Notes: a model not told the origin generated them from the sequence alone. 14,699 nucleotides of DNA from Candidatus Auribacterota bacterium (GCA_023136205.1 JAGLRQ010000033.1:1-14699); one strand, 5' to 3'; numbered from the stretch's first letter, positions 553-14,396 are shown. Program-made: numbers and translations.

Positions 553-644
553 ATTTATTAACGACAAATGCTCTTTTTACTGATTAGGCCCCCGGTGTGT
601 TTTTTTAATCACAGGTAGAAAAAATCGGACGTGTCCCCGATTAT
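553..644. repeat. Direct repeat copy A (core 580-644), in the convergent gap between the 170-aa ORF and the 827-aa ORF
   Basis: Hand alignment to 3234-3328. The shared blocks are 'atttatt', 'acgacaaat', then the core 'ctgattaggcccc[c/t]ggtgt[g/a]ttt[t/c]tttaatcacagg[t/c]agaaaaaat[c/-]ggacgtgtcccc[g/a]attat'. The core has about 6 differences in about 65 nt. The 19 nt between 'acgacaaat' and the core are much more diverged. Confidence 0.85.
617..642 (-). terminator. Candidate weak intrinsic terminator of the 827-aa gene, embedded in repeat copy A
   Basis: The minus strand reads 'aatcgg-ggacacgt-ccgatt' (6-bp stem, 8-nt loop) followed by 'ttttct'. It begins 3 nt after the TAA stop at 646-648. 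The stem is short and only half GC. Confidence 0.35.
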
Positions 645-645
645 T

Positions 646-3129
646 TTACCTTAACAGATCCGCTGGTTTAAACTTAGGCAATTCGCCCAGATTATTACTT
701 TTTGTTATATCCCGTTTTGTACGTAAATATTCCCGGCCGCTTTGTGATTTCCGGATATGTACACGCGGGATATATACTATCCCTTTTTTTATACACTGAA
801 TAACTTCCGATACCTGTAAGTCAACACCGGAATTGAATTTAATTGAGTGAATTCGCCCGCTTTTTTCATATATAGCCGCTGGAGTGAGTGTAACCTTTCG
901 TAATGATTTTTGTTGGATACGAAAATGAGCGGTTATATACCTTATTTCCACGGACGCGCCGCTATCATTAGTATATACCAGATTTTTTAACTCCCAGGTT
1001 CCTTTTTCCCTGATTCGGCCGGTTAATTTTAAAGGTAACGGATAGTTAACCGAACCGGCGCCGCCCTGGCCTGAGAGAATCATTCCTTCAGAGTTAATTG
1101 AAACCTTTTCATAAAGTTGAGTCGGGCCGGTTGCCATATTGTATGCGATATCTGTACCCTGAGATTGAAATAGTTGAATGATAACAGGGATAGTTTCAAA
1201 TAGTTTAGCCGCTTGCTCGGTAATAGCTGCCGTATTCTCCTTTTGTTTTTCTTTCGCTATAACATACTCGGCAACTTCCAAAGCAATAGGGCCGCCAACC
1301 AACCCTAACGGGCCAAGGGTTAAACCTCCAATAATCGTAGCAAGAATATCACCCATGATTCCTGTATCAACATTAAGTTTTTCAATATCGGCGTTAATTC
1401 GTAATTTATAGTCGTTAATAGATGGGGAAAATTTTATTCGGCAAAAAACATCCGCGTCAGGCCAGTAATCGATTGTATATTCAAGTTTGGCTGTACATTT
1501 TATAGATCCGTCATGCCACCTGAGGTCCAGATCTTTATATACACCTACCTGTTGGTTTCCATTATAAACAGGCCGGCACCCGATTCCTATGTGATTGGAA
1601 CCCGGGAAAATTATAAGATCAGAAAGATTGCCTTCAAAAGGTACATAAAAAGCGTTCCATTGAGATTGTTGAAACCGGCGTAGTACAGGTTTCGCGAGCC
1701 CAATAGCGAAATCGCGTTCCGGGCGTAAAAAATTTAAAGCGCGGCTGGTATCTCCGCGTGGAGGGTTTCTTTTTGCCAGTTCCACGATATCTTCGGGGGA
1801 TGGTTTATGTCCGTTATGATATTCCGCGAATAAGTTTCCTTCCTCATCAATGTCAATACGTTTAAGGCTGATATTGCCGATAGAATGAGTTAGTATGGAA
1901 TTATTATTTACTTGGGGGTTTTCACTGGAATAAATCAGTTGCTCCGGGGGGATAATATTGCCTTCTTTGTCTTTCACTTCTGGAAACCCGGCTTCTGATA
2001 ACTCTATTTTTTCCCCTGTAACATTTTCCGGCCGGCTTTCTTCTTCTATGGAAAATTTATTGGTCAACGCTCGCAGGTCCAGACGCATGTTACAATAAAC
2101 GCCGTATGCCGGCGCGAACATGGCGTTGCCCTGCAGCTTTTTATATTCAATTCGCTGAATTTGAGCGGAAGGGACAAACGACATATCAAATTGCTTTGGT
2201 ATAACCTGAGAAATGAACCCGGCCAGCCCGTTTCCCAGATTTTCAATTTCCACCCTGTTTCCCCATTCATTTAAAACCGAGACAGAATGTTCATGGACAA
2301 CAGGGTTGCCAAGTTTAAGGCTGTCTGCTGTCATATCAATAGCAATAAATATAATAATCTCATTTAGCTCTTCGCCAATAAATTTTGTTTCACCGTTAGC
2401 ATAAGTATGTTCTCCCTCAATACGGATAGGAATATGAATTTTTAAATCCGGAGGAGTTTTTAAAATAGCCATAATCTTTTTCTTATAATCCGGTAAATGT
2501 TGTTCAAGCCACTGATTCATTTCGTCTTGAACAGTATCAAAATCAACGCTTAACAGGCCTGCGGCATCTAACCACTTCTTTTCCTGGAGAAAAAGCAGAA
2601 AAGGGTTAATTTGTTCTTTCGAAAGTACGTCAATTGTATCGAGTATAATTTTATCAACAGGCCTGTTATCATTAAAGATTAGACATTTGTAAGGAGCTCC
2701 GATATGCAATATTGTTAATCTGAGGGCGTTTTGCAGAAGATTGATAATTTCTTCCTGCCAGCCGTCATATTTTTCGTCCAAAAATGTCTTTAATTTTTTA
2801 TTCATAGGGTCAAAGTCCTGTTTTAACGAATTGTTGCTCAGCCATCCATTGCCCTTTAAAAAACCGTGAAGCTGTTCGGATTTGCTGTTGTTTATTCCTT
2901 CAATTACGGTAAATGTATGTTCAGCGACGGTCCCTTTAATCGCGATATCATAAGATTGAATTGATATATTGTATTCGGAAAGAATAGCTTTTACTATTGG
3001 ATTTTCTAACGCTTGTTTATTTAAAAATTTGCCGCTGGAGTAAGCCGCGCTGAAAATACGGCATAAGTAATCTCCGCCCATAAGAAATTCACAATCAAAA
3101 CCGGTTTTTATTAGTGATTGATCAACCAT
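646..3129 (-). CDS. Large orphan protein (827 aa from ATG 3129; 833 aa if TTG 3147): tandem N-terminal modules, unrecognised central region, one glycine-zipper hydrophobic segment, C-terminal DUF3892-like domain
   Basis: Long uninterrupted ORF. On the minus strand the ATG at 3129 is preceded by 'aaaggagacacggtt' (an AAGGAG Shine-Dalgarno, 8-nt spacer), so ATG 3129 is preferred over the tracked TTG at 3147. I see no Walker A, HExxH or other catalytic signature. The C-terminal 'GREYLRTKRDITKSNNLGELPKF' matches my memory of the DUF3892 (PF13031) signature Y-[LIV]-R-T-x-x-D-x-x-x-x-[DN]-N-L-x-x-L-P-x-[FC]. Confidence 0.85.
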   Translation of the reverse strand: MVDQSLIKTGFDCEFLMGGDYLCRIFSAAYSSGKFLNKQALENPIVKAILSEYNISIQSYDIAIKGTVAEHTFTVIEGINNSKSEQLHGFLKGNGWLSNNSLKQDFDPMNKKLKTFLDEKYDGWQEEIINLLQNALRLTILHIGAPYKCLIFNDNRPVDKIILDTIDVLSKEQINPFLLFLQEKKWLDAAGLLSVDFDTVQDEMNQWLEQHLPDYKKKIMAILKTPPDLKIHIPIRIEGEHTYANGETKFIGEELNEIIIFIAIDMTADSLKLGNPVVHEHSVSVLNEWGNRVEIENLGNGLAGFISQVIPKQFDMSFVPSAQIQRIEYKKLQGNAMFAPAYGVYCNMRLDLRALTNKFSIEEESRPENVTGEKIELSEAGFPEVKDKEGNIIPPEQLIYSSENPQVNNNSILTHSIGNISLKRIDIDEEGNLFAEYHNGHKPSPEDIVELAKRNPPRGDTSRALNFLRPERDFAIGLAKPVLRRFQQSQWNAFYVPFEGNLSDLIIFPGSNHIGIGCRPVYNGNQQVGVYKDLDLRWHDGSIKCTAKLEYTIDYWPDADVFCRIKFSPSINDYKLRINADIEKLNVDTGIMGDILATIIGGLTLGPLGLVGGPIALEVAEYVIAKEKQKENTAAITEQAAKLFETIPVIIQLFQSQGTDIAYNMATGPTQLYEKVSINSEGMILSGQGGAGSVNYPLPLKLTGRIREKGTWELKNLVYTNDSGASVEIRYITAHFRIQQKSLRKVTLTPAAIYEKSGRIHSIKFNSGVDLQVSEVIQCIKKGIVYIPRVHIRKSQSGREYLRTKRDITKSNNLGELPKFKPADLLR

Positions 3130-3176
3130 AACCGTGTCTCCTTTCAATTTTTGTCTAAAGAAAAGAATAGAAAGAT

Positions 3177-3233: not shown

Positions 3234-3328
3234 ATTTATTGAGTGACGACAAATTTCATTCTCTCTGATTAGGCCCCTGGTGTATTTCTTTAATCACAGG
3301 CAGAAAAAATGGACGTGTCCCCAATTAT
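3234..3328. repeat. Direct repeat copy B (core 3265-3328), upstream of the 827-aa gene in the divergent intergenic region
   Basis: Same orientation as copy A (see 553-644). Relative to copy A, the hairpin-2 stem has lost one base pair: the C equivalent to nt 626 is deleted and its partner G639 is changed to A. The terminator-like hairpin is therefore degraded in this copy. Confidence 0.85.
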
Positions 3329-3347
3329 CCTTTATTGATCAAAATTA

Positions 3348-3509
3348 GCACCCTATCGGGTATGAATTCTTCTATCTTGTCAACAAATTATACCTGGTAG
3401 GGTACAAACACTCTATTTGTATACCCTAAAGGGTGCAATATTTTCCAATTTGCACCTTATGGGGTATAAAATTTACAAAAAAATCTTGAAACTATACCCG
3501 ATATGTGAT
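3348..3509 (+). promoter_or_regulatory. Array of 16-bp palindromic operator-like sites (RYACCC-N4-GGGTRY) upstream of the XRE/hipB-like gene
   Basis: Site 1, 3348-3363, gcaccc-tatc-gggtat. Site 2, 3390-3405, atacct-ggta-gggtac. Site 3, 3421-3436, ataccc-taaa-gggtgc. Site 4, 3452-3467, gcacct-tatg-gggtat. Site 5, 3494-3509, ataccc-gata-tgtgat (left half-site only). Centre-to-centre spacing is 42, 31, 31, 42 bp. Confidence 0.7.
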
Positions 3510-3523: not shown

Positions 3524-3784
3524 ATGGAGCAAGATAATTTACAATATATGATGAATATTTCTCTTCAAATAAAAAATTTGCGGAAGAAAAATGGTTTAAC
3601 CCAGGTTGAGTTTGCCAAACGGGCGGGAGTCGGTTTGCGTTTTTTAAGAGAGCTTGAACGCGGTAAGATAACGGTAAGAATGGATAAGCTCACGCGGGTT
3701 TTGGATTTTTTGGGATATCATCTGGAATTAAAAAGAAACGAACCGCAAGATACTATGAAGCATGAAGAAACTGATATTATATAG
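3524..3784 (+). CDS. hipB: XRE-family helix-turn-helix transcriptional regulator (HipB-like)
   Basis: 86 aa with a canonical Cro/C1-type HTH ('GLTQVEFAKRAGVGLRFLRELERGK'). It is the first gene of a three-gene operon with HipA-derived genes. No clear Shine-Dalgarno; the start could be ATG 3548 or 3551. Confidence 0.85.
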   Translation: MEQDNLQYMMNISLQIKNLRKKNGLTQVEFAKRAGVGLRFLRELERGKITVRMDKLTRVLDFLGYHLELKRNEPQDTMKHEETDII

Positions 3785-3796
3785 GAAAGATTTTCT

Positions 3797-4120
3797 ATGG
3801 ATGGTTTAAGAAAAGCACGGGTCTTTTATAAAAATGAGTTGGCAGGATATATTACCGAGGCCCAAAACGGCTATATCTTCCAATATGACCATGAATTTTT
3901 AAAGAAAAATATTCCAATTTCGATGTCTTTGCCTCCGAGGGAAGAATCTTACCATTCAAAAGAATTGTTTCCTTTCTTTAAGGGGCTTCTTCCGGAAGGG
4001 TGGTATTTAAATATCGTGAGCGCGACGCAAAAAGTTGACGATAAAGATTCCTTTGGTTTATTATTGGCAAGCACCAGCGGCGATACCATTGGCGCGGTTA
4101 CCGTAGTAAAGACGGAATAA
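3797..4120 (+). CDS. hipS: Stand-alone HipA N-terminal subdomain protein (HipS-like, putative antitoxin)
   Basis: 107 aa. The pattern 'VFYKNELAGYI...GYIFQYDHEFL...PISMSLP...FPFFKGLLPEGW' matches the HipA N-terminal (Couple_hipA) domain consensus. It lies 12 nt after hipB and 5 nt before the kinase gene. Confidence 0.8.
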   Translation: MDGLRKARVFYKNELAGYITEAQNGYIFQYDHEFLKKNIPISMSLPPREESYHSKELFPFFKGLLPEGWYLNIVSATQKVDDKDSFGLLLASTSGDTIGAVTVVKTE

Positions 4121-4125
4121 CAAAA

Positions 4126-4989
4126 ATGAATGAGAAATTTCTTAAAGAAATGTTTAACTCTTCTAAATGGCCGGTTATAGATTTTAACCTGGGAGATATA
4201 TCCCAAAAGGCACAGAAATTGGCTGGCAAACTTTCCATTTCCGGAGTCCAGCCTAAGCTGTCTGTTAAACTGGACAAGAAACAAAATATGTTAATCCCCG
4301 CGGCTGAAGGCGGGGAATATATTTTAAAACCACAAACCTCTACTTTTCCCAATATCCCGGAAAACGAACAGTGTTGTATGACTATAGCCGAAGAATTAGG
4401 GATAGATATTCCGCTACATTGTTTGATTCCTTTAAAAGATCAGAGCCTTGCTTATGTGGTTAAAAGGTTTGACCGGGAAAAAAATGGGAAAATTCATCAG
4501 GAAGATTTCGCGCAAATTCTTGAAGAAACGGATAAATATAGGGGGTCGGTAGAACAAATAGGCCGAAAGCTGAAAGAAATATCTTCAGCGCCGGGTTACG
4601 ATACCCAATTACTTTTTGAGCGGGTTGTTCTTAACTTTATTCTTGGCAATGGCGATGCCCACTTAAAAAATTATTCTATTTCTTATAGAGATAGGGATAA
4701 TATCCGTTTAACGCCTGCTTATGATATTGTGTGTTCAAAGCTGGTTCTTCCCAATGAGGAGGATTCTGCCATAACAATTGATGGGGAAAAAAATAAATTG
4801 AGGCAAGAGGATTTCGATAAATTGGCTGAATATTTAAATATTCCTGTAAAAATTAGGTACGAAAAATTTGAAAAGAAGTTTGATGTCATGAGAAAAATCA
4901 TAGAGGCTTCCCGTATTGATAGGGGAAAACAGCAAAAATTTCTTGAAATAATACAGGAAAGAATAAGCCGTTTAAATTTGCCGGAATAA
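4126..4989 (+). CDS. hipT: HipA C-terminal Ser/Thr kinase domain protein (HipT-like toxin)
   Basis: 287 aa. Gly-rich loop 'KLSISGVQPKL' (S37-I38-S39 at nt 4234-4242). 'EYILKP' is the putative ATP-binding lysine. Catalytic motif 'GNGDAHLKN' (D177, N182). Mg-binding 'TPAYD' (D200). All are HipA-family hallmarks. Confidence 0.9.
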   Translation: MNEKFLKEMFNSSKWPVIDFNLGDISQKAQKLAGKLSISGVQPKLSVKLDKKQNMLIPAAEGGEYILKPQTSTFPNIPENEQCCMTIAEELGIDIPLHCLIPLKDQSLAYVVKRFDREKNGKIHQEDFAQILEETDKYRGSVEQIGRKLKEISSAPGYDTQLLFERVVLNFILGNGDAHLKNYSISYRDRDNIRLTPAYDIVCSKLVLPNEEDSAITIDGEKNKLRQEDFDKLAEYLNIPVKIRYEKFEKKFDVMRKIIEASRIDRGKQQKFLEIIQERISRLNLPE

Positions 4990-5096
4990 GAAAAAATGAG
5001 GCAGGCGTTGAATAAACGCTCACAGCGCTTTGCGATTAATGTTGTTTTGTGTGTGGTTTAGTTTTAACATTGTAAAAAATAACAGGAGAATGGGAA

Positions 5097-5699
5097 ATGG
5101 CGGCACAATTACAAGAGTTGATAGAGAGAATTAACAAGGAGGGAGTAAAATCCGCTGAGGAAAAAACCCGAAAGATAATAGCCGAAGCTGAAAAGAAAGC
5201 TGAAGATATTATTGAAAAAGCGGAAAAAGAAGCAAAGGCTCTTACAGAGAACGCAAAGAAGAGCGCGAAAAGCACTCAGGAAAAATCCGAAAAAGCCATA
5301 AAACAGTCATTTCGCAATGTGATGCTCGCGTTAAAACAGGAGATTACAAAACAATTTGACCTGATTGTAAAAAGTGAAATAGGAAAAGCCCTGAAACCGG
5401 AGGTTGTAAGCGAAGTAATTATCAATGTTTCAAAAGATATCGCGAAACAAAAAAGTGATGGGAAGGATGTTCAGATTCTTGTCAACGAAAAAGACGCGAA
5501 AAAACTCGCGGTGACTTTTATCGAGAGCTTTAAAAAAGAAATACAATCAGGGCTGGAAATAAAACCTGTCAAAAACATTGACGCGGGGTTTATGGTGAGT
5601 TTTGACGGCGGAAAGTCACATTATGATTTTACTGATGACGGGCTCAGGGAATGTCTCTCAGCATATATTAGCCCCCAGCTGAAGGAAATTGTAAAGTAA
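5097..5699 (+). CDS. atpE: V/A-type ATPase subunit E (peripheral stalk)
   Basis: 200 aa. It has a Lys/Glu/Ala-rich N-terminal coiled coil ('IIAEAEKKAEDIIEKAEKEAKAL') plus a globular C-terminus. It is the first gene of the operon. AGGAGA Shine-Dalgarno at 5084-5089. Confidence 0.85.
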   Translation: MAAQLQELIERINKEGVKSAEEKTRKIIAEAEKKAEDIIEKAEKEAKALTENAKKSAKSTQEKSEKAIKQSFRNVMLALKQEITKQFDLIVKSEIGKALKPEVVSEVIINVSKDIAKQKSDGKDVQILVNEKDAKKLAVTFIESFKKEIQSGLEIKPVKNIDAGFMVSFDGGKSHYDFTDDGLRECLSAYISPQLKEIVK

Positions 5700-5724
5700 A
5701 AAAGAAATAAATAAGGATTTGGTA

Positions 5725-6270
5725 ATGGGCTCTTCTTACTATTTTTTGTGCGCTTCTTTGCCTATGTTGGCATTTGGTTCAAAACCGCCAATGTCAAACG
5801 AGGATTTTGTTAAGCAGAGCACGGGAAATGTGACTGTAGAGGATTCTGAAATTCTCCTGAGCGCGCGCCTTCTTCCGGAAAAGAAGGTTAAAAAAAATCA
5901 CCCTGCCCTTAAGGTTTGGCTCGGGTTTGAAACAATGCTTAGAAATGAAATGGTTAAGTTCAGGTCGAAAAAACTTAGGCTGGACCCCCTGGATTATTTC
6001 AGGGGAGACTATGTTCCCGCGCCGAATTTAACCAGGATTGTATTAGAGGCATCGGGTGAGGAAACCCCTCTTGAAGTTGAAAGAAGGATAGACACAGCCC
6101 GGTGGGAAAAACTTGAAGAAATACAACAGCAGCATTTTTTTGATTTGCACTTTCTTGTTGTTTATTTTTTAAAACTTCAAATTCTAAATAAATGGGACAA
6201 TATGAAAACTGAAAAAGCCCGTAAAATATTGAGAGAACTGCTGCCGCCTGAAAAGGAGCTTAAAGAATGA
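5725..6270 (+). CDS. DUF2764-like V-ATPase operon protein (probable subunit C/d-equivalent accessory subunit)
   Basis: It occupies the conserved position between E and A, as in the Chlamydia and Bacteroides V-ATPase operons. The N-terminal 'YYFLCASLPML' resembles my memory of DUF2764. ATG 5725 has AAGGA seven nt upstream; the ORF track starts at TTG 5719. The stop overlaps the atpA start (ATGA). Confidence 0.65.
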   Translation: MGSSYYFLCASLPMLAFGSKPPMSNEDFVKQSTGNVTVEDSEILLSARLLPEKKVKKNHPALKVWLGFETMLRNEMVKFRSKKLRLDPLDYFRGDYVPAPNLTRIVLEASGEETPLEVERRIDTARWEKLEEIQQQHFFDLHFLVVYFLKLQILNKWDNMKTEKARKILRELLPPEKELKE

Positions 6271-8006
6271 GTAAAAGAGAAGGCCGTATATCCGGGATAA
6301 ACGGAAACATGATTACAGTTAATTTTGATGATTTTGTTCTGCAGAATGAAGTCGCTTATGCCCTAACCGGAGATGAACATCTTAAATCAGAGGTTATCAG
6401 GGTGAGAGGTAAAAAAGCGGAACTGCAGGTTTATGAAGGAACCGAAGGTTTAAAAGTAGGAGATAAGGTTGAATTTAGCGGGGAACTTCTTGTGGTTGAG
6501 CTGGGGCCGGGGCTTTTAACACAGGTATATGACGGGCTTCAGAACCCTCTTCCCCTTGTCGCCGAGAAATGCGGGTTTTTCCTTAAAAGAGGGGTTTATT
6601 TAAGCGCTCTTTCTGATACGGAAGAATGGGAGTTTACACCGGCGATTGAGGCCGGTGCTTCTGTTAAAGCGGGAGATGTTCTGGGAACAGTTCCCGAAGG
6701 TATTTTTAAACACTCTATTATGGTGCCCTTCGCGATGAGGGATGAATATAAAGTTGTGAAGGTGGCAAAAGAAGGTTCCTATACTATTAAAGAAACAATC
6801 GCGGAAGTGAAAGATTCAAAAGGGGAAATACAAAAGATAACAATGGTCCAGTCATGGCCTGTTAAAATACCCATAACCGCTTATACTGAAAAGCTTAAAC
6901 CGGCTGAGCCTATTATAACTAAAGTAAGGATTATTGATACACTGGTACCGATCGCGAAGGGAGGAACTTATTGTATTCCGGGGCCGTTTGGCGCGGGGAA
7001 AACGGTTCTTCAGCAGCTTACAAGCCGCCACGCGGAAGTTGATATTGTTATTATAGCTGCCTGCGGTGAACGTGCCGGTGAAGTTGTGGAAACCCTGAGG
7101 GAATTTCCTGAACTTACAGATCCCAGAACAGGGAAATCCCTGATGGAGAGGACAATTATTATCTGTAACACAAGCTCTATGCCGGTAGCCGCGCGGGAGT
7201 CAAGCGTTTATACAGCGGTTACCCTGGCGGAATATTACAGACAGATGGGATTAAATGTCCTTTTGCTTCCTGATTCAACGTCGCGCTGGGCCCAGGCGAT
7301 GAGAGAAATGTCAGGGAGGCTTGAAGAAATACCGGGAGAAGAAGCTTTTCCGGCTTACCTTGAGTCACGAATAGCTTCTTTCTATGAAAGGGCCGGGGTG
7401 GTTCGGCTTAATAACGGAAAAATAGGCTCGATAACAATCGGGGGAACCATAAGCCCCGCGGGCGGCAACTTTGAAGAACCGGTGACCCAGGCAACATTAA
7501 AAGTTGTGGGGGCTTTTCTCGGGCTTTCCAGGGAACGTTCGGACGCGAGAAAGTATCCTTCGATAGACCCTCTTGATTCCTGGAGTAAATATAAAAGCTG
7601 TGTAGACGAAAAACAGGTTGAGTATGCCCGTAAGATTTTGATTAGAAGTACGGAAGTTGGGCAGATGATGAAAGTTGTTGGTGAAGAAGGAACGTCACTG
7701 GATGACTTTATTGATTATCTTAAAGGGCAATTTGTGGATGAAGTTTATTTACAGCAGAACGCGTTTGATGAAGTTGACGGGGCGACACCGGCAGAAAGAC
7801 AGAGATATGTCTTTAATGTTCTTCATTATATTCTGGAAGCTAAGTTTCAATTTGAAAACAAAGAAGAGACAAGACATTTTTTCCAACAGCTCAGGCAGGA
7901 CTTCAGGAACTGGAATTCTGATCCGTGGCAAAGCGCTGAATTTAAAAAGAGAGAAGATTTACTGAAAAGCAAAATTGAAGAATCAACAGGAAGAATAAAA
8001 GGATAA
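6267..8006 (+). CDS. atpA: V/A-type ATPase catalytic subunit A
   Basis: 579 aa. Walker A 'GPFGAGKT' at nt 6981-7004. Also '[34 protein letters not shown]', typical of V/A-type A subunits. AAGGAG Shine-Dalgarno upstream. Confidence 0.95.
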
Positions 8007-8008
8007 TT

Positions 8009-9400
8009 ATGCAAAAGGTTTACAGTAAAATATTACAGATTGTAGGAGATGTTATAACAGTTGAAGCCGAAGGCATAGGCAACCAGGAGCTCGCGGAGGT
8101 AACAACCTCGAGGGGGAAAACCTTAGCCCAGGTTATACGCCTTGATGAAAATAAAGTTTATCTGCAGGTGTTTGCCGGTAGCCGGGGCGTTTCGACAGGG
8201 GACAAAATAAGGTTTTTGGGGCACAGGATGCGGGTTTCTTTCTCAGATAATCTTATGGGAAGGATTTTTGATGGAAGCGGTATGCCGAGGGACAACGGGC
8301 CTTCGCTTGCTGAAAATTTAATTGAAATAGGCGGCCCGTCGGTAAATCCCGCGAAAAGGATTATTCCCAAAAGGATGGTAAGAACCGGGATTCCCATGAT
8401 AGATGTTTTTAATTCACTTGTTATATCCCAGAAACTTCCTATTTTTTCCATCGCGGGAGAGCCGTACAATGAAGTTCTTGCCAGAATCGCGATGCAGGCA
8501 GAGGTGGATGTGATAATACTCGGCGGCCTCGGCCTTAAATATGATGATTTTCTTTATTTTAGAGATACGCTTGAAGAACACGGGGCCCTTTCCAACTCGA
8601 TCTTTTTTGTTCATACCGCCTCTGATCCTACGGTCGAGTGTGTTATGGTTCCTGATATGTGCCTTACTGTGGCAGAGCAGCTTGCGATTAACGGGAAAGA
8701 TGTGCTTGTCCTCTTATCCGATATGACAAATTTTGCCGATTCACTAAAAGAAATAGCCATAACAATGGAACAAATACCTTCCAACCGCGGGTATCCCGGG
8801 GATCTTTACAGCCAGCTTGCTGTCCGCTATGAAAAGGCGGTTGACTTTAGCGATGCCGGGTCTATTACTATTCTCGCGGTAACAACAATGCCGGGAGATG
8901 ATGTAACCCATCCGGTTCCTGATAATACAGGATATATTACAGAAGGGCAGTTGTATCTTAGAAACGGAAGAATCGAGCCGTTTGGTTCTTTAAGCCGCTT
9001 AAAACAGCAGGTGAACGCGAAAACAAGAGAAGATCATAGGACGGTAATGGATACAATGATCCAGCTTTATTCAGATTTTAACGGCGCGAAAGAAAAGCTG
9101 GCTATGGGTTTTGAAACGACCGGGTGGGATAAAAAGCTTCTAAAATACGGAGAAATGTTTGAAGAGCGGATGATGTCGCTGAAAGTTAATATGCCTCTTG
9201 AAAAAGCGCTTGACCTCGGATGGGAAATAATGGCTGAATGTTTTGAGCCGGAGGAAACAGGGATAAAAACAGAAATGGTTGAGAAATTCTGGCCGAAGAA
9301 GGAAGCTGAAACGCGAGAAGTGGAAGAAGAGGTGGAACAAGAGGGGCCAACAACGGTGGAAGAGCTTGGTTCTTTGGAAAATAATTTTGAAGGAAAATAA
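8009..9400 (+). CDS. atpB: V/A-type ATPase subunit B (non-catalytic), with an acidic C-terminal tail
   Basis: 463 aa. '[18 protein letters not shown]' and '[33 protein letters not shown]' are B-subunit signatures. There is no intact P-loop. Confidence 0.95.
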
Positions 9401-9485
9401 GGAAGAGAGAGGAAACAGAGAGTTACAATTCACTAAATAGTGCGAAGCGCAGCGTAGCCTCCCCGGAGGGGACTAAATACGAGTT

Positions 9486-10097
9486 ATGGCAAGAAAAAAA
9501 ATAAAGTTTACAAAGGGAGAATTAAAAAAACAGCGTGATTCGAAGACGCAGTTCCAGCGTTATCTTCCGATTCTTCAGTTAAAGCAGCAGCAGCTTCAGC
9601 TCGAAGTTCAAAAGACAGAAGCCAGGTTAAAAAAACTCAAAGAAGAGGTAGAGCAGATAAAGGAGGACATGGTTAGCTGGATTGGCGTATTGGCTGAACC
9701 GAAAATAGATCTTACCCCCTGGGTGAAGCCAAAAGATGTTGTAACATCCACCACAAATATCGCGGGCGTTGACGTTCCTGTTTTTAAAAGGGCTGATTTT
9801 GCGGAGGTTGACTATGATATTTTTAGCATGCCCTTATGGGTTGATTCTGCTGTTGATGAAATACGCAGGCTCTCAGAGCTTATCGCGGAAACCGATATCA
9901 CACAGGAAGAACATAATATTCTTAATAGAGAACTTAAAGTTACTATGCAGCGGGTAAATCTTTTTGAAAAGGTTAAGATTCCCGAAAGCAAAGAGAATAT
10001 AAGGGTTATTCAAATTTATCTGGGTGACCAGTATACGAATGCTGTCGGAAGAAGCAAGATAGCAAAGAGAAAGATAGAAGTACTCTTAAAAACTTAG
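9486..10097 (+). CDS. atpD: V/A-type ATPase subunit D (central stalk)
   Basis: 203 aa. It has a basic N-terminus, a long coiled coil ('LQLKQQQLQLEVQKTEARLKKLKEEVEQ'), and a C-terminal 'RVNLFEKVKIPE...IRVIQIYL' motif typical of D subunits. It sits after B in the operon. Confidence 0.85.
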   Translation: MARKKIKFTKGELKKQRDSKTQFQRYLPILQLKQQQLQLEVQKTEARLKKLKEEVEQIKEDMVSWIGVLAEPKIDLTPWVKPKDVVTSTTNIAGVDVPVFKRADFAEVDYDIFSMPLWVDSAVDEIRRLSELIAETDITQEEHNILNRELKVTMQRVNLFEKVKIPESKENIRVIQIYLGDQYTNAVGRSKIAKRKIEVLLKT

Positions 10098-10106
10098 GCC
10101 AAAATC

Positions 10107-11906
10107 ATGATTGTTCAGATGAAAAAAATTACTATGATTGTCCAGGACAAGGACAAGGAAGAAGCTTTAAGTCAGCTTTCTTCTCTTGGGTTGGTTCATG
10201 TTGAATATCTGAGTAATCCCGCGGGGCAATCTATCAATGAGGTGCATGAAGATATTCACATGATTTCAAGAGCGCTGGAAATTATCCCGCCCGGGGATGA
10301 AGGCCTTGTGTCCAGGCAAGTTGAGAATTGGGGCAAGGTCGCGGACACTGTCCTTGATTTAAGGGATTACCGCGGCAAGTTGATGGAACGCCGGAGAAAA
10401 TGCCAGGGGGAAATCGACCGGTGGGCAGACTGGGGAGATTTTGATGTTTCTCTTATCAGGCATTTAAGCGTGAAAGGTATCCGGGTTTACCTCTGTGAAG
10501 TACCTGTCAAGGAACTTAAAGATATCCCCGGGGATGCGATTGTTCAGATAGTTTCCCGGAAAGGCGGAATTGTCCGCTGCGCGGTTGTTTCTGATAAAAA
10601 TATGGAGTTTTCTTTTAAAGTCCTTGCTCTTCCGGAAAAAAGATTTTCCGATCTTATCAGAGAGCGGAAGGAAAATGAAAAACAAATAAAACTGGTAGAT
10701 GAACAGTTAAAAGATTTTGTTCACTTTAGAAATGGGCTTGAAGAGATCAGACAGCATCTTGAAAAAGAACTGGAATTTGAAAATGCGCGTGTTGGAATGG
10801 GCAGTGCCGGCAAACTTTCTTATTTGACAGGATATTGCCCTGTCCCGAAAATTTCGGTGCTTGAAGAGGCTTCTAAAAAATTTAAGTGGGCTCTTCTTAT
10901 GGAAGACCCCGCGGAACAAGATATTCCTCCAACGCTTATAACCAATCCAAAATGGGTAAATCTGATAAAACCGGTTTTTAATATTATAAACACTATCCCT
11001 GGTTATAGAGAAGTTGATATAAGTACCGTGTTTTTGCTTTTCTTTTCAATTTTCTTCGGGATGCTTATTGGTGACGCGGGTTACGGCGCTTTGATTTTTA
11101 TCGCGACTGCTTTCGCGCAATTCAAGTTTGGGAAGGCAATGAAAGATAAAAGCCCTCTTTTCCTTATGTACACGCTTGGTATGATGACAGTGATTTGGGG
11201 TCTTTTAACCGGGACAATCTTTGGCAAAGAATGGCTTCCTCAGTCGGTTAAGCCTATGATGCCGTGGCTCGCGAAGGGTGTGAATATTCAAGTGCTTTGT
11301 TTATTTATAGGCGCTTTGCATTTATCAATAGCACATGTATGGAGGGCGGTAAAAAAAGCTCCATCTGTTTTAGCCCTCGCGGAAGCAGGATGGATCGGTA
11401 TTTTATGGGGGATGTTTTTCCTGGCGCGAACACTTATAGCAGGGACTAAAATGCCTTTTTACGCTTTGTGTTTTCTCGGGATTGGTTTAATATTTGTATT
11501 GGTGTTTACAATTCATCCCAGGTATTTTTTTAAAGGGTTGTTCCTCCGCCTTGTCACACACTTTTTTAGTGTATTAGGCAGTTTCACGGATATTGTGTCC
11601 TATATAAGGTTATTTGCCGTGGGAACGGCATCTGTAGCGGTCGCGGACGCGTTTAATAAGATGGCGGCGCAGGTAGGGTATTCCAATATATTGATAGTTC
11701 CGATTACAGCAGTTATTCTGTTAATAGGGCATGGTTTAAATATAACCCTTGGCGCTTTGGCAATCCTGGTACATGGTGTTCGATTAAATGTTCTTGAATT
11801 TTCCAGCCATATGGGTTTAGATTGGTCGGGAGTAGAATATAACCCTTTTAAGGGTAAAAAAACAGGTTTAAGCAATACTGCTTATGGAGCGGAAGGAGAG
11901 CAATAA
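10107..11906 (+). CDS. atpI: V/A-type ATPase subunit I (a-subunit, membrane stator)
   Basis: 599 aa. It has a soluble N-terminal half and a polytopic C-terminal half, including 'SYIRLFAVGTASVAVA' (the conserved Arg helix) and 'HGVRLNVLEFSSH'. The start may be ATG 10119 ('MKKITMIV...'). Confidence 0.9.
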   Translation: MIVQMKKITMIVQDKDKEEALSQLSSLGLVHVEYLSNPAGQSINEVHEDIHMISRALEIIPPGDEGLVSRQVENWGKVADTVLDLRDYRGKLMERRRKCQGEIDRWADWGDFDVSLIRHLSVKGIRVYLCEVPVKELKDIPGDAIVQIVSRKGGIVRCAVVSDKNMEFSFKVLALPEKRFSDLIRERKENEKQIKLVDEQLKDFVHFRNGLEEIRQHLEKELEFENARVGMGSAGKLSYLTGYCPVPKISVLEEASKKFKWALLMEDPAEQDIPPTLITNPKWVNLIKPVFNIINTIPGYREVDISTVFLLFFSIFFGMLIGDAGYGALIFIATAFAQFKFGKAMKDKSPLFLMYTLGMMTVIWGLLTGTIFGKEWLPQSVKPMMPWLAKGVNIQVLCLFIGALHLSIAHVWRAVKKAPSVLALAEAGWIGILWGMFFLARTLIAGTKMPFYALCFLGIGLIFVLVFTIHPRYFFKGLFLRLVTHFFSVLGSFTDIVSYIRLFAVGTASVAVADAFNKMAAQVGYSNILIVPITAVILLIGHGLNITLGALAILVHGVRLNVLEFSSHMGLDWSGVEYNPFKGKKTGLSNTAYGAEGEQ

Positions 11907-12355
11907 TGGAAGCAGGGAGTGTTCTAATACAATTTCAGGATTTGGGGTATATGGCGGCTCTTGCTCTTGCGGCTACAGGGTCGGCATTAGGAACAGGCGC
12001 GGCCGGGATGGCTGCTATCGGGGCATGGAAAAAATGTTACGCGCAGAGTAAAGCGGCCCCGTTTCAGCTTACGGTTTTCGCGGGTGCGCCTCTCTCGCAG
12101 ACGATTTATGGCCTGATAGTTATGCTTACTATTAAAGGGAGAGCTGACGCGGGAACATATCTTTGGTGGGCCGGAATTTTTGGTGGGCTGGCCATGGGTA
12201 TGAGCGCCTGGATGCAGGGAAAAGCCGGGGCGGCCGCCGCGGATGCTCTTGCTGAAACAGGCAAAGGATTTACAAATTATCTGCTGGTTCTTGGAATTAT
12301 TGAAACCGTCGCGCTGTTTGTAATGGCATTTATATTGTTATCCGCGTTCGCGTAA
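11906..12355 (+). CDS. atpK: V/A-type ATPase proteolipid subunit K (c-subunit, duplicated 4-TM form)
   Basis: 149 aa, Gly/Ala-rich, four predicted TM helices, with a single membrane carboxylate E133 ('GIIETVALF', nt 12302-12304). The start overlaps the atpI stop (TAATG). GGAGA Shine-Dalgarno upstream. Confidence 0.9.
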   Translation: MEAGSVLIQFQDLGYMAALALAATGSALGTGAAGMAAIGAWKKCYAQSKAAPFQLTVFAGAPLSQTIYGLIVMLTIKGRADAGTYLWWAGIFGGLAMGMSAWMQGKAGAAAADALAETGKGFTNYLLVLGIIETVALFVMAFILLSAFA

Positions 12356-12390
12356 AATAACCTGTTCCTCCCCCGGGGTAGAACAATGGC

Positions 12391-13560
12391 GTGAGAATAA
12401 AAAAAATGGCTGAGCTTAAACACGATCCTAAAAAATACGAGAAAATCCATCATATCTTGTTTCTCGCGGATATACTGTTAACCGTATTGGTTCTGCTTGC
12501 TTTTTTCATGACTCCCCTTTCTGTTAACCTCATGGAAATAGCCCGGGAAAATGTCCCTGAAACACTTGGGGCCAACATCGCGTTTATACTGCTCAACGCG
12601 TTTTATCTTGTTGCTTTCGTAATCATAATCTGGTTAATCTTTCTGCCGCTGCATTTTTACGGTTCGTATGTTGTTGAACACAAGTACGGGCTTTCCAATC
12701 TGACAAAAGTTAAGTGGTTCAAAGATGAAATGAAAAGCCTTTTACTGGGGTTAATCACTAAACTTATTCTTGTAGAAGCGCTGTATCTCCTTTTGTGGAA
12801 AAACCCGGGAAATTGGTGGATATGGACAGCGGTTGTCTGGATAATATTCAGCATTGTTATGACCAGGATTTATCCTTCGGTTATACTTCCGTTATTCTAC
12901 AAGATTAAACCGATTGGAAACAAAATTCTCGCTGAGAGGATAAAAAAGTTTATAGAAAAGGAAGGCGGGCGCGTTTTAGGAATTTTTGAATGGGAGTTAA
13001 GCGCGAAGACAAAAAAGGCAAACGCGGCTTTTACCGGAATGGGCAGTACCAAGAGGGTTATACTCGGCGACACCTTGATAAATAATTATACGGATGACGA
13101 AATAGAAACAATCATTGCCCACGAGTTTGGCCATCACAGATTCAGGCATCTCTATAAATTTCTGTATATAGGCGCCGGTATTTATATCGTCAGTTTTGCC
13201 GTGATTAATATGGTTTTTAAAGGCCTTATAGAATGGCGTTATTATGACAACATAGACTTTTTTAATATTGCCACTTTTCCGTTAATAGCTCTTTGCATAT
13301 ACATTATTCAGCTTGTCGCGATGCCTGCGCTGAATGTAATCTCCAGGTTTTTTGAAAGGCAGGCAGACCATTTCGCGCTTGAAAAAACAAATAACCCCGA
13401 CGCGTTTATTTCCGGTATGTCCAAGCTTGCCGAGCAAAACCTCGCGAACAAGGAACCTAACGCGATTATAGAATTTTTACTCTATAGCCATCCGGCCATA
13501 TCTAAAAGGATAAAAGCGGCAGAGGAATATAAAAAGAATCAGTCACGGATTACGAATTGA
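12391..13560 (+). CDS. M48-family integral-membrane zinc metalloprotease (Ste24/HtpX-like)
   Basis: 389 aa with multiple N-terminal TM helices. HExxH 'HEFGH' at nt 13120-13134, followed by 'FERQADHFA', which supplies the third-ligand Glu region. The tracked start is GTG 12391; ATG 12406 is an alternative. Confidence 0.85.
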   Translation: MRIKKMAELKHDPKKYEKIHHILFLADILLTVLVLLAFFMTPLSVNLMEIARENVPETLGANIAFILLNAFYLVAFVIIIWLIFLPLHFYGSYVVEHKYGLSNLTKVKWFKDEMKSLLLGLITKLILVEALYLLLWKNPGNWWIWTAVVWIIFSIVMTRIYPSVILPLFYKIKPIGNKILAERIKKFIEKEGGRVLGIFEWELSAKTKKANAAFTGMGSTKRVILGDTLINNYTDDEIETIIAHEFGHHRFRHLYKFLYIGAGIYIVSFAVINMVFKGLIEWRYYDNIDFFNIATFPLIALCIYIIQLVAMPALNVISRFFERQADHFALEKTNNPDAFISGMSKLAEQNLANKEPNAIIEFLLYSHPAISKRIKAAEEYKKNQSRITN

Positions 13561-14396
13561 AAAAAGAACCTATCCTTTATGTAGTTGCTACCCCCATAGG
13601 AAACCTTGATGATATGTCTGGGCGGGCGGTTAATATCATGGCAATTTCGGATTTTATCATCGCGGAGGATACTAGAAAAGCGCGGATTCTTTTAAATAAA
13701 TTTAATATCAGTAAAAAGAGAGTTGTGAGTTTTTTTGAAGGAAATGAGAAGGAGAAAATATCCGGCATAGTTAAAATGGTAAAAAACGCGGAGTGCTGTT
13801 CCCTGATTTCCGAAGCGGGTACGCCGTGTATATCTGATCCCGGGTACAGGCTTGTGAAAACCTTGCGCGATGACGGGATTAAGGTAGTGCCGGTTCCCGG
13901 GCCCTGTGCCGCAATAGCGGCGCTCTCGGCATCGGGGATTGCGTCTGACAGGTTTTCGTTTGAAGGGTATCTGCCCAAAGGAGAAAAGAAATTGGAAAAA
14001 TTTCTCTCAGGCCTTGAAAATGAAGAGAGGACACTTTTGTTTTATGAATCCCCCCGGAGAATACAAAAATCACTGGCGGTTATGATAAAAGTTTTTGGCA
14101 GCAGAAAAGCGTGCCTTTTCCGCGAAATGACAAAGATGTTTGAAGAAAGCATCTTTGGGACGCTTGAAGAAATAAGACGGAAAGTTTCTGAGCCGGTGAG
14201 AGGCGAGGTGACTCTTGTTGTTGCCCCGCCGGAAAAGAAGAGAATGTGGGATATTGACTTCGGCAGAGCGGTTCAGGTTATACAGGAGGAAACCGGAATT
14301 TCAAAAGGCAGGGCGGCAAAGCTCGCGGCAAAGATAACAGGGGCTAAAAAAAGAGACATATATAAAGAGGCGCTGAAAGAAAATGAGATTAGGTGA
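13557..14396 (+). CDS. rsmI: 16S rRNA (cytidine1402-2'-O)-methyltransferase RsmI
   Basis: 279 aa. 'LYVVATPIGNLDDMSGRA...IIAEDTR', 'SEAGTPCISDPGYRLV' and 'PGPCAAIAALSASG' are the tetrapyrrole-methylase-fold RsmI motifs. The TTG start overlaps the M48 stop (TTGA). Confidence 0.9.
   Translation: MKKEPILYVVATPIGNLDDMSGRAVNIMAISDFIIAEDTRKARILLNKFNISKKRVVSFFEGNEKEKISGIVKMVKNAECCSLISEAGTPCISDPGYRLVKTLRDDGIKVVPVPGPCAAIAALSASGIASDRFSFEGYLPKGEKKLEKFLSGLENEERTLLFYESPRRIQKSLAVMIKVFGSRKACLFREMTKMFEESIFGTLEEIRRKVSEPVRGEVTLVVAPPEKKRMWDIDFGRAVQVIQEETGISKGRAAKLAAKITGAKKRDIYKEALKENEIR

Follow-up and report, generated by a model that had tools for sequence, protein, structure and literature searches.

A predicted BPI-like double TULIP protein with a hydrophobic glycine-rich segment and a C-terminal DUF3892, lacking a signal peptide, in Candidatus Auribacterota

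Proteins of the BPI/LBP/CETP group bind lipids, BPI itself being membrane-active, and BPI is built on a plan of strand, helix A, long strands and helix B that is repeated twice. Among the bacterial tandem TULIP proteins, the genes of P47 and OrfX belong to conserved orfX-p47 operons beside toxin genes (PMC7020563). Other TULIP families described from bacteria are YceB, DUF4403, DUF2140 and DUF2993 (Levine 2019), and both these families and TipA of Bdellovibrio lie outside the cytoplasm, being secreted, periplasmic or lipid-anchored. The domain DUF3892 has been described as similar to double-stranded RNA-binding domains and HPF, is typically fused to the lipid-directed effector Min-Wnt and occurs in operons under CapH/CapP DNA-damage-responsive control; papers citing the relevant work relate that comparative genomics ties it to conflict systems. 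Here, we describe a gene for a protein of 827 amino acids (aa) in a stretch of 14,699 nucleotides (nt) from Candidatus Auribacterota bacterium (GCA_023136205.1 JAGLRQ010000033.1:1-14699; the whole stretch is called the window below), which is predicted to join a TULIP module to DUF3892. An initial annotation, made from the DNA alone, had presented this protein as an orphan of unrecognised multi-domain architecture and as a candidate conflict or defence effector encoded by a single gene.

Based on structure prediction, the 827-aa protein is very probably a BPI-like tandem of two TULIP barrels that carries a hydrophobic segment, ends in DUF3892 and has no signal peptide. As the predicted fold is a BPI-like lipid-binding fold with a hydrophobic Gly-rich loop, the protein probably acts on membrane lipids. 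The full statement, in which this double-TULIP/DUF3892 architecture serves to bind or perturb lipids from the cytoplasmic side in an accessory stress or conflict role, is put forward tentatively. The gene itself is well defined: the mechanical list of open reading frames (ORFs) contains a single large minus-strand ORF (646..3147) whose ATG at 3129 gives 827 aa, and the identical protein is encoded on six independent contigs.

With an alignment of 65 family members, AlphaFold2 gave a model with a predicted local distance difference test score (pLDDT) of 88.2 and a predicted TM-score (pTM) of 0.85, in which only residues 512-514 and 606-625 fall below a pLDDT of 50; with three sequences, the pLDDT was 39.8. 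When the Protein Data Bank (PDB) was searched with Foldseek, all eight matches at E<=1e-3 were tandem TULIP proteins (BPI, LBP, CETP and C. botulinum P47 and OrfX1-OrfX3), with E-values from 3e-6 for BPI to 8e-5, six of them at a probability >=0.99, and alignments of more than 500 columns. The next match had an E-value of 8e-2, and the weaker ones include the single-domain proteins BPIF, PLUNC and latherin. In the model, a strand, helix A, four to five long twisted strands and helix B follow one another twice over, an order that fits the BPI topology and therefore supports a TULIP fold. The architecture formerly called unrecognised is hence predicted to be a double TULIP like that of BPI, LBP, CETP, P47 and OrfX, and because this is a lipid-binding fold, the bulk of the protein would be a lipid-handling module and not the sensor-like soluble body that had been suggested. 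The positions of all features are collected in Table 1, the boundaries of inserts and barrels having been obtained from the occupancy of the family alignment mapped onto the 827-aa protein.

Table 1. Features of the 827-aa protein, its gene and the surrounding window; domain assignments other than DUF3892 are taken from the predicted structure
Feature	Position in window	Strand	Residues	Remarks
Gene for the 827-aa protein	646..3129	-	1-827	From ORF list, translation and start context; stop codon 646-648
Shine-Dalgarno-like sequence	3137-3144	-		AAAGGAGA, 7 nt before the ATG; direct sequence reading
Conserved N-terminus	3025..3129	-	1-35	M-x-D-x-S-x-I-x-T-G-F-D-x-E-F-L-x-G; predicted first strand and helix A of barrel 1
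Subfamily insert with duplicated helical module	2449..3024	-	36-227	Units at about 75-144 and 162-234
Remainder of predicted TULIP barrel 1	2062..2448	-	228-356	Long twisted strands 229-273, helices 280-309, strands 313-348; boundaries approximate
Second insert	1780..2061	-	357-450	Small beta-hairpins and a helix; otherwise in 700-750-aa relatives only
Predicted TULIP barrel 2	895..1779	-	451-745	RGD/SFLP-type motif at the start, strands 520-588, interrupted helix 590-644, strands 654-730
Hydrophobic Gly-rich (glycine-zipper-like) segment	1252..1362	-	590-626	Uncharged core 595-617, acidic residues on both sides
C-terminal DUF3892	676..882	-	750-818	Pfam PF13031 at 755-818
Downstream copy of the ~93-nt direct repeat	553..644			Starts 2 nt past the stop codon; hairpin and T-run (623-642) at the end nearest the gene
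Upstream copy of the ~93-nt direct repeat	3238..3328			108 nt before the ATG; same orientation and same hairpin
ACCC-N4-GGGT palindromes (probable HipB operators)	3350-3361, 3392-3403, 3423-3434, 3454-3465			Within 3345-3505, upstream of hipB; half-site at 3493-3503
hipB	3524-3784			86-aa helix-turn-helix (HTH) protein, above the couple_hipB cut-off
hipS	3797-4120			107-aa HipA N-terminal-domain protein (Couple_hipA)
hipT	4126-4989			287-aa HipA_C kinase
V-type ATPase operon and following genes	5097-14396			E-like, DUF2764, A, B, D, I and K subunits, then M48 CAAX-type peptidase and RsmI-like methylase

The N-terminus is shared across the family, with the pattern M-I-D-x-S-R-I-x-S-G-F-D-V-E-h-L-L-G in which D12 and E14 are nearly invariant in the 65-member alignment, and is modelled as a strand (residues 13-17) followed by a helix (19-31). 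A signal peptide is found in none of the aligned members, the conserved N-terminus being acidic and polar from Met1 onwards, without a signal-like hydrophobic stretch. The divergent N-terminal duplication that had been noticed in the sequence stands, its two units aligning with a score of 54 compared to 25.5 +/- 4.5 (maximum 44) in 300 shuffles. This helical module is missing from the shorter members and confined to a subfamily of three lineages, occurring in three copies in the relative P0002 (L007 10001-12688) and in two in the 827-aa protein and the relative P0003; in the model, where the block means of pLDDT over residues 36-227 range from 66 to 98 and mostly exceed 80, it is a subfamily-specific insert within barrel 1. 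Barrel 2 is the most conserved block of the family, with profile matches spanning about residues 455-824 in most members and with R458, G459, L468, G529, D558, D588, P648, G682, G687 and Y719 conserved. A comparison of barrel 1 with barrel 2 by hhalign gave no signal, and the N-terminal 241 aa searched alone against the PDB gave chance matches only.

The strongly hydrophobic Gly-rich stretch pointed out in the initial annotation is confirmed by a Kyte-Doolittle hydropathy of 1.74 over residues 595-613; following a conserved D-x-D-T-G-h-L-G-D motif, it lies within the long helix of barrel 2 and interrupts this helix. It is a trait of the family as a whole, with a hydropathy of transmembrane grade: the best 19-aa window has a Kyte-Doolittle value of at least 1.6 in 63 of the 65 members, reaching up to 2.67. 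The uncharged core measures 35 aa in the median, contains 23% Gly and lies between flanks with net charges of -3.0 and -2.0. A few family members match the Pfam models Gly-zipper_Omp, YMGG or DUF1269, the number with matches to Gly-zipper models being four; the 827-aa protein matches none of the Gly-zipper models. The C-terminal domain likened to DUF3892 was likewise identified correctly, PF13031 matching with an E-value of 1.9e-12 and 47.9 bits (cut-off 22.3), and the same model recognises 33 of the 65 members. DUF3892 is modelled with a pLDDT of 88-98 as strands 750-756, 759-765 and 770-772, a helix at 773-781 and two further strands, and the predicted three-stranded meander plus helix agrees with the description in the literature. 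A structural match in BFVD covers 74 residues of the domain with a root-mean-square deviation of 1.7, and among the PHROGs a weak match to phrog_8224 involves the DUF3892 tail only.

Judged by the model, the closest described structures are BPI, LBP and CETP, with which the protein shares two barrels in tandem, in each of which a strongly twisted antiparallel sheet winds around a long helix. In contrast to these extracellular proteins, the family has no signal peptide and no sequence or profile similarity to BPI-like proteins; it also adds the Gly-rich segment in helix B of barrel 2 as well as DUF3892, to which the subfamily adds two large inserts. The bacterial tandem TULIPs P47, OrfX1 and OrfX3 of C. 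botulinum are matched at Foldseek E-values of 1.6e-5 to 8e-5, but the genes of the present family stand alone without a conserved partner, and their products match only DUF3892 and Gly-zipper-type models in Pfam. Unlike TipA, which has the operon partner TipB, and unlike the families of Levine 2019, they have neither an export signal nor a partner and they do have DUF3892. In domain logic, the closest parallel is provided by the fusions of Min-Wnt (Lipocone) to DUF3892, which are predicted antiviral effectors and which also combine DUF3892 with a lipid-directed module in a signal-less and presumably intracellular protein; however, Min-Wnt is predicted to be an enzyme with lipid head groups as its target, whereas the partner in the present case is predicted to be a non-enzymatic lipid-binding tube. 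The uncharged Gly-rich segment, about 35 aa long, resembles segments of the Gly-zipper_Omp, YMGG and SlyB type and of colicin-type pore-forming domains, SlyB being its nearest, though insignificant, PDB sequence match. In contrast to Gly-zipper proteins, there is no homology beyond the low-complexity segment, which measures 23 aa here; pore formation would be pure conjecture. A full-text search of the literature found no paper combining TULIP, anti-phage and lipid-binding.

The protein had been called an orphan, which holds as far as a word-indexed search of 5.8 billion clusters is concerned, since it returned three full-length proteins, namely the 827-aa protein itself, in a MAG (metagenome-assembled genome) with the label Candidatus Aureabacteria (Auribacterota, PVC group), P0002 (895 aa, 43% identity) and P0003 (848 aa, 46% identity), but fails in an exhaustive profile search of 1.84 billion representatives, which gave 98 matches, 28 of them at E<=1e-30. 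As about 14 of the 98 cover the DUF3892 tail only, the family comprises roughly 80 clusters at 50% identity, each of one to four sequences and all labelled hypothetical or unnamed except for one XapX-like cluster, a mislabel. Full-length homologues are 43-49% identical to the 827-aa protein, and a repeat of the word-indexed protein search with the 65-sequence profile found nothing past the three known proteins. Most members have 530-750 aa, their common parts being the first ~35 and the last ~370 residues. Members were placed in genomes by a degenerate DNA pattern followed by a local hmmsearch, by which 14 of 32 pattern matches were true members; pattern matches in IMG/VR were false. The family occurs in many Bacteroidota (Saprospiraceae, Lewinella, Rikenellaceae, Mariniphaga, Saccharicrinis sp. 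156, Flavitalea and Parafilimonas), in Auribacterota and Ignavibacteriales, and in two MAGs labelled Promethearchaeia. In these two MAGs, whose label places them among the Asgard archaea, the 572-aa member P0011 (L012, L013 and L017) lies on contigs of 129-136 kb. A Saprospiraceae member (L022 6149-7935) is broken into three ORF fragments, which may reflect a pseudogene or a sequencing frameshift. A search of metagenomes with the subfamily profile made one find, a second copy of the P0002 locus, and tblastn searches of plasmid and phage collections gave no match to the 827-aa protein. The family is thus rare, previously undescribed and, going by the MAG labels, both bacterial and archaeal.

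The homologues are stand-alone genes in about 22 contexts, all of them different, and no conserved operon partner or synteny was found in these contexts, even within one bacterial family (L033 versus L043), in agreement with the view that the gene is sporadic and lies outside conserved synteny. As the contexts all differ and the neighbours are miscellaneous, the gene is accessory and horizontally scattered. Toxin-antitoxin (TA), defence or mobile genes are neighbours in about 5 of the roughly 22 contexts, a small and unsystematic sample without a background control. The 827-aa gene is adjacent to HipBST and 1.4 kb from a Y1 transposase gene, P0004 is adjacent to Phd-PIN and P0005 to a phage-type integrase, and P0011 has NERD within 3 kb. 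In a Flavitalea MAG (L041 329-3818), the family gene lies about 760 nt downstream of a gene for a TIR and prokaryotic-STING protein, an effector of the cyclic-oligonucleotide-based antiphage signalling system (CBASS), on the same strand and separated from it by an 83-aa ORF. An ABC/MFP/OEP exporter is encoded divergently from one homologue, one context includes an SDH-type protease, and one lineage has a MoxR/DUF58 operon and a hybrid kinase. In the P0010 lineage (L056/L057 10001-13070), the gene overlaps a 34-aa ORF downstream, beyond which lies an OMP_b-brl outer-membrane beta-barrel gene, and the three may form an operon; rho is also found in this context. Further contexts contain a LytTR regulator and DUF4058, and Mur ligase, AhpC, melibiase, BKACE, GNAT, nitrilase, beta-lactamase, glyoxalase and PMT_2 genes. 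Around the homologues, defence, TA or mobile genes occur in a minority of contexts, most neighbours being ordinary, and the association of the family with defence is weak.

We hypothesize that the 827-aa protein is made in the cytoplasm, where its TULIP tube would bind or extract phospholipid acyl chains at the cytoplasmic face of the cell's own membrane and the hydrophobic segment would serve as a wedge or hairpin in the membrane. Until its release, this segment may be sheltered by the barrel in the soluble protein, similar to the buried hydrophobic hairpins of pore-forming toxins, while DUF3892 could have a regulatory or sensing function and control when the lipid-directed part acts on the membrane. 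The likeliest setting would be an accessory stress or conflict role, with membrane perturbation leading to dormancy or death; such a setting is suggested by the sporadic distribution, the variable inserts and the occasional TA, CBASS or integrase neighbours. Among the arguments for an effector, the two unrelated lipid-directed partners of DUF3892 are the most suggestive. We regard the conflict-effector mechanism as possible and hold it with slightly more reserve than the full statement given above. For the effector role proposed in the initial annotation, the accessory character, the hydrophobic element and DUF3892 speak in favour, but the protein matches no PADLOC model, most neighbours are ordinary and phage and plasmid collections contain no match.

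Several observations weigh against this proposal. The Foldseek TM-scores to PDB TULIPs are 0.13-0.28 and the identities 8-10%, the Pfam models for BPI/LBP/CETP, P47, YceB, DUF4403, DUF2140 and DUF2993 match neither the 827-aa protein nor the 65 members, and hhalign of the family profile to the BPI sequence yields a probability of 0.1. DUF3892 is the sole domain recognised by Pfam, NCBIfam gives no match to the 827-aa protein, and phmmer and hmmsearch against PDB sequences find nothing, the link to TULIP proteins being one of fold similarity alone. The uncharged core is short, measuring 23 aa in the 827-aa protein and 14-15 aa in its near relatives P0004 and P0007. While the family could plausibly form a complete transmembrane hairpin, this is doubtful for the 827-aa protein, given its 23-aa core. 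The acidic flanks are also ill-suited to a stably inserted segment with cytoplasmic ends, and the function of DUF3892 is itself predicted only. Regarding defence, most homologue neighbours are ordinary metabolic or regulatory genes, the 827-aa protein matches 0 families of PADLOC-DB v2 at E<=0.1, and PADLOC models are matched by 2 of 48 further neighbour ORFs.

The gene is the largest of the window and, being convergent with a plus-strand gene that ends at 526 and divergent from hipB at 3524, monocistronic by geometry, as had been read from the sequence together with its Shine-Dalgarno sequence. Its own promoter could not be upheld: the lone candidate, at 3206-3177, is sigma-70-like in 9 of 12 positions, a level of agreement reached at least as often in shuffles. 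For a terminator, the hairpin and T-run at 642-623 on the minus strand do exist, but the hairpin is part of the flanking repeat. The adjacent HipBST module is real and complete, profile matches identifying all three genes of a tripartite hipB-hipS-hipT locus. Upstream of hipB, the last three full ACCC-N4-GGGT sites are spaced at 31 nt, and as these putative HipB operators sit in the intergenic region common to both genes, co-regulation of hipB and the 827-aa gene is conceivable. Beyond HipBST follows the V-type ATPase operon, confirming a position just outside a housekeeping operon; GC content and GC skew are a little lower in the stretch from the DUF3892 gene to hipBST than in 5097-14396, and an Rfam scan of the window gave no match. 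On contig L001, a gene for a 220-aa Y1_Tnp (IS200/RAYT-type) transposase lies at 4420-5082, about 1.4 kb from the 827-aa gene. Inverted repeats of 19 nt, AAAGGGGACAGCGCCTTTT, which match perfectly, bracket this transposase gene, the whole region being L001 4390-5143. The opposite side of the locus (L001 5123-12984) is origin-proximal, with parB, parA, a radical-SAM gene, gidA, trmE, yidC and rnpA, and two parS-like sites, TGTTCCACGTGGAACA, at L001 6780-6875. In five of the six contigs, the assembly breaks at most about 250-730 nt from the 827-aa gene, in three on both sides and in two on one side; these breaks could reflect presence or absence of the gene at strain level, or repeat-induced assembly breaks.

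The flanking direct repeats reported earlier are present as well and are about 82% identical, with a 19-nt core that has two matches compared to 0.01 expected by chance. Repeat, 108 nt, ORF and repeat follow one another with a start-to-start spacing of 2685 nt, and each repeat opens, in the sense of the gene, with the hairpin AATCGG-GGACACGT-CCGATT followed by a T-run. A GGGGACA loop core is common to these hairpins and to the inverted repeats around Y1_Tnp; the stems differ and the likeness is limited to about 20 nt. One possibility is that a small cassette of 2.7 kb carries the 827-aa gene as its passenger and that the 93-nt repeats are its termini or the sites of its recombination, perhaps as hairpin elements that the neighbouring Y1 transposase recognises. 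The repeats enclose exactly one gene, 2 nt after its stop and 108 nt before its start, the upstream copy has nothing to terminate, the four GGGGACA hairpins are the sole copies in about 27 kb, and five of the six assemblies with the gene end close to it on one or both sides. Such a layout is as expected from a one-gene circle integrating at a pre-existing repeat and also resembles a hairpin-ended element mobilised by a Y1 transposase. However, the likeness to the Y1 flanks is so short, the two copies have diverged, all six contigs show the same context with neither an empty site nor a second location, and the repeat core has 0 matches in the JGI metagenome collection. An integron cassette bounded by attC sites was rejected, because the repeats lack R''/R' core sites (RYYYAAC / GTTRRRY) and fold no better than shuffles (z +0.09 and -1.83). 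Overall we find a cassette rather doubtful, though deserving of consideration, and it is compatible with all of the functional readings.

Turning to function, a lipid-directed TULIP protein need not be a conflict effector, and the principal alternative is a constitutive membrane-anchored protein of lipid transfer or lipid homeostasis, in which the hydrophobic segment is a permanent monotopic anchor, as in those eukaryotic SMP/TULIP proteins that are anchored by a hairpin, such as the E-Syts, and the tube moves or buffers lipids at the cytoplasmic leaflet, for example in envelope stress. The predicted fold, the family-wide hydrophobic segment of hairpin length and the mostly ordinary neighbours are in line with such a role, as are the outer-membrane beta-barrel gene tightly downstream in one lineage, the MoxR/DUF58 operon in another and the PADLOC results described above. 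Yet a homeostasis protein would hardly be expected in a family so rare and patchy, with about 80 clusters in 1.84 billion representatives and few sequences in each, or to lack a conserved partner or synteny even between L033 and L043; furthermore, acidic flanks are unusual for a stable anchor, and it is not obvious what a fused DUF3892 would do in lipid transport. We therefore consider this alternative somewhat unlikely, a little more so than the cassette.

The closest folds (BPI, LBP, P47/OrfX and TipA) are extracellular and membrane-active or toxin-associated, and acidic flanks around an uncharged hairpin recall toxins that insert from outside, which could suggest an antibacterial or host-directed protein of the BPI/P47 kind, attacking foreign membranes from outside after its release through lysis or a non-classical pathway, for instance a type I system; one homologue is divergent from an ABC/MFP/OEP exporter. 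This is improbable, since no member has a signal peptide, the other ~21 contexts show no secretion-system neighbourhood, an immunity-gene-like partner is missing and the extreme C-terminus is a conserved folded domain and not a variable secretion signal. Equally improbable is a TULIP-like shape that is convergent or a modelling artefact in a protein with a function unrelated to lipids, such as an RNA- or ribosome-associated factor acting via DUF3892: the low TM-scores and identities and the lack of profile-level similarity would allow it, but eight consistent tandem TULIP matches with all other matches at 8e-2 or worse, a model of high confidence obtained from an independent alignment of the family and a conserved hydrophobic segment that fits a lipid or membrane function argue against it.

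The preferred reading, a cytoplasmic BPI-like double TULIP acting on lipids in an accessory stress or conflict role, can be extended to a single-gene abortive-infection or dormancy effector, an intracellular prokaryotic counterpart of BPI-type innate-immunity proteins, in which DUF3892 senses an infection cue, for example RNA or altered ribosomes, and releases a glycine-zipper hairpin from the lipid tube to extract lipids from, or perforate, the cell's own membrane; in this full form we regard it as unlikely, and if it were true, the Asgard-labelled member would bear on the origin of eukaryotic membrane-anchored TULIP proteins. Prokaryotic TULIPs described to date are secreted, periplasmic or toxin-associated, and the family would add to them a signal-less BPI-like double TULIP with its own hydrophobic element and DUF3892. 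For DUF3892, so far discussed only in conflict-system predictions, a second lipid-directed fusion partner unrelated to Min-Wnt would be gained, and the two partners sharpen the idea that this domain couples an intracellular signal to an action on membrane lipids. The predicted fold offers a structural handle for about 80 clusters labelled 'hypothetical' or 'DUF3892 domain-containing', and as the cultured strain Saccharicrinis sp. 156 carries a member of the family, experiments are possible there.

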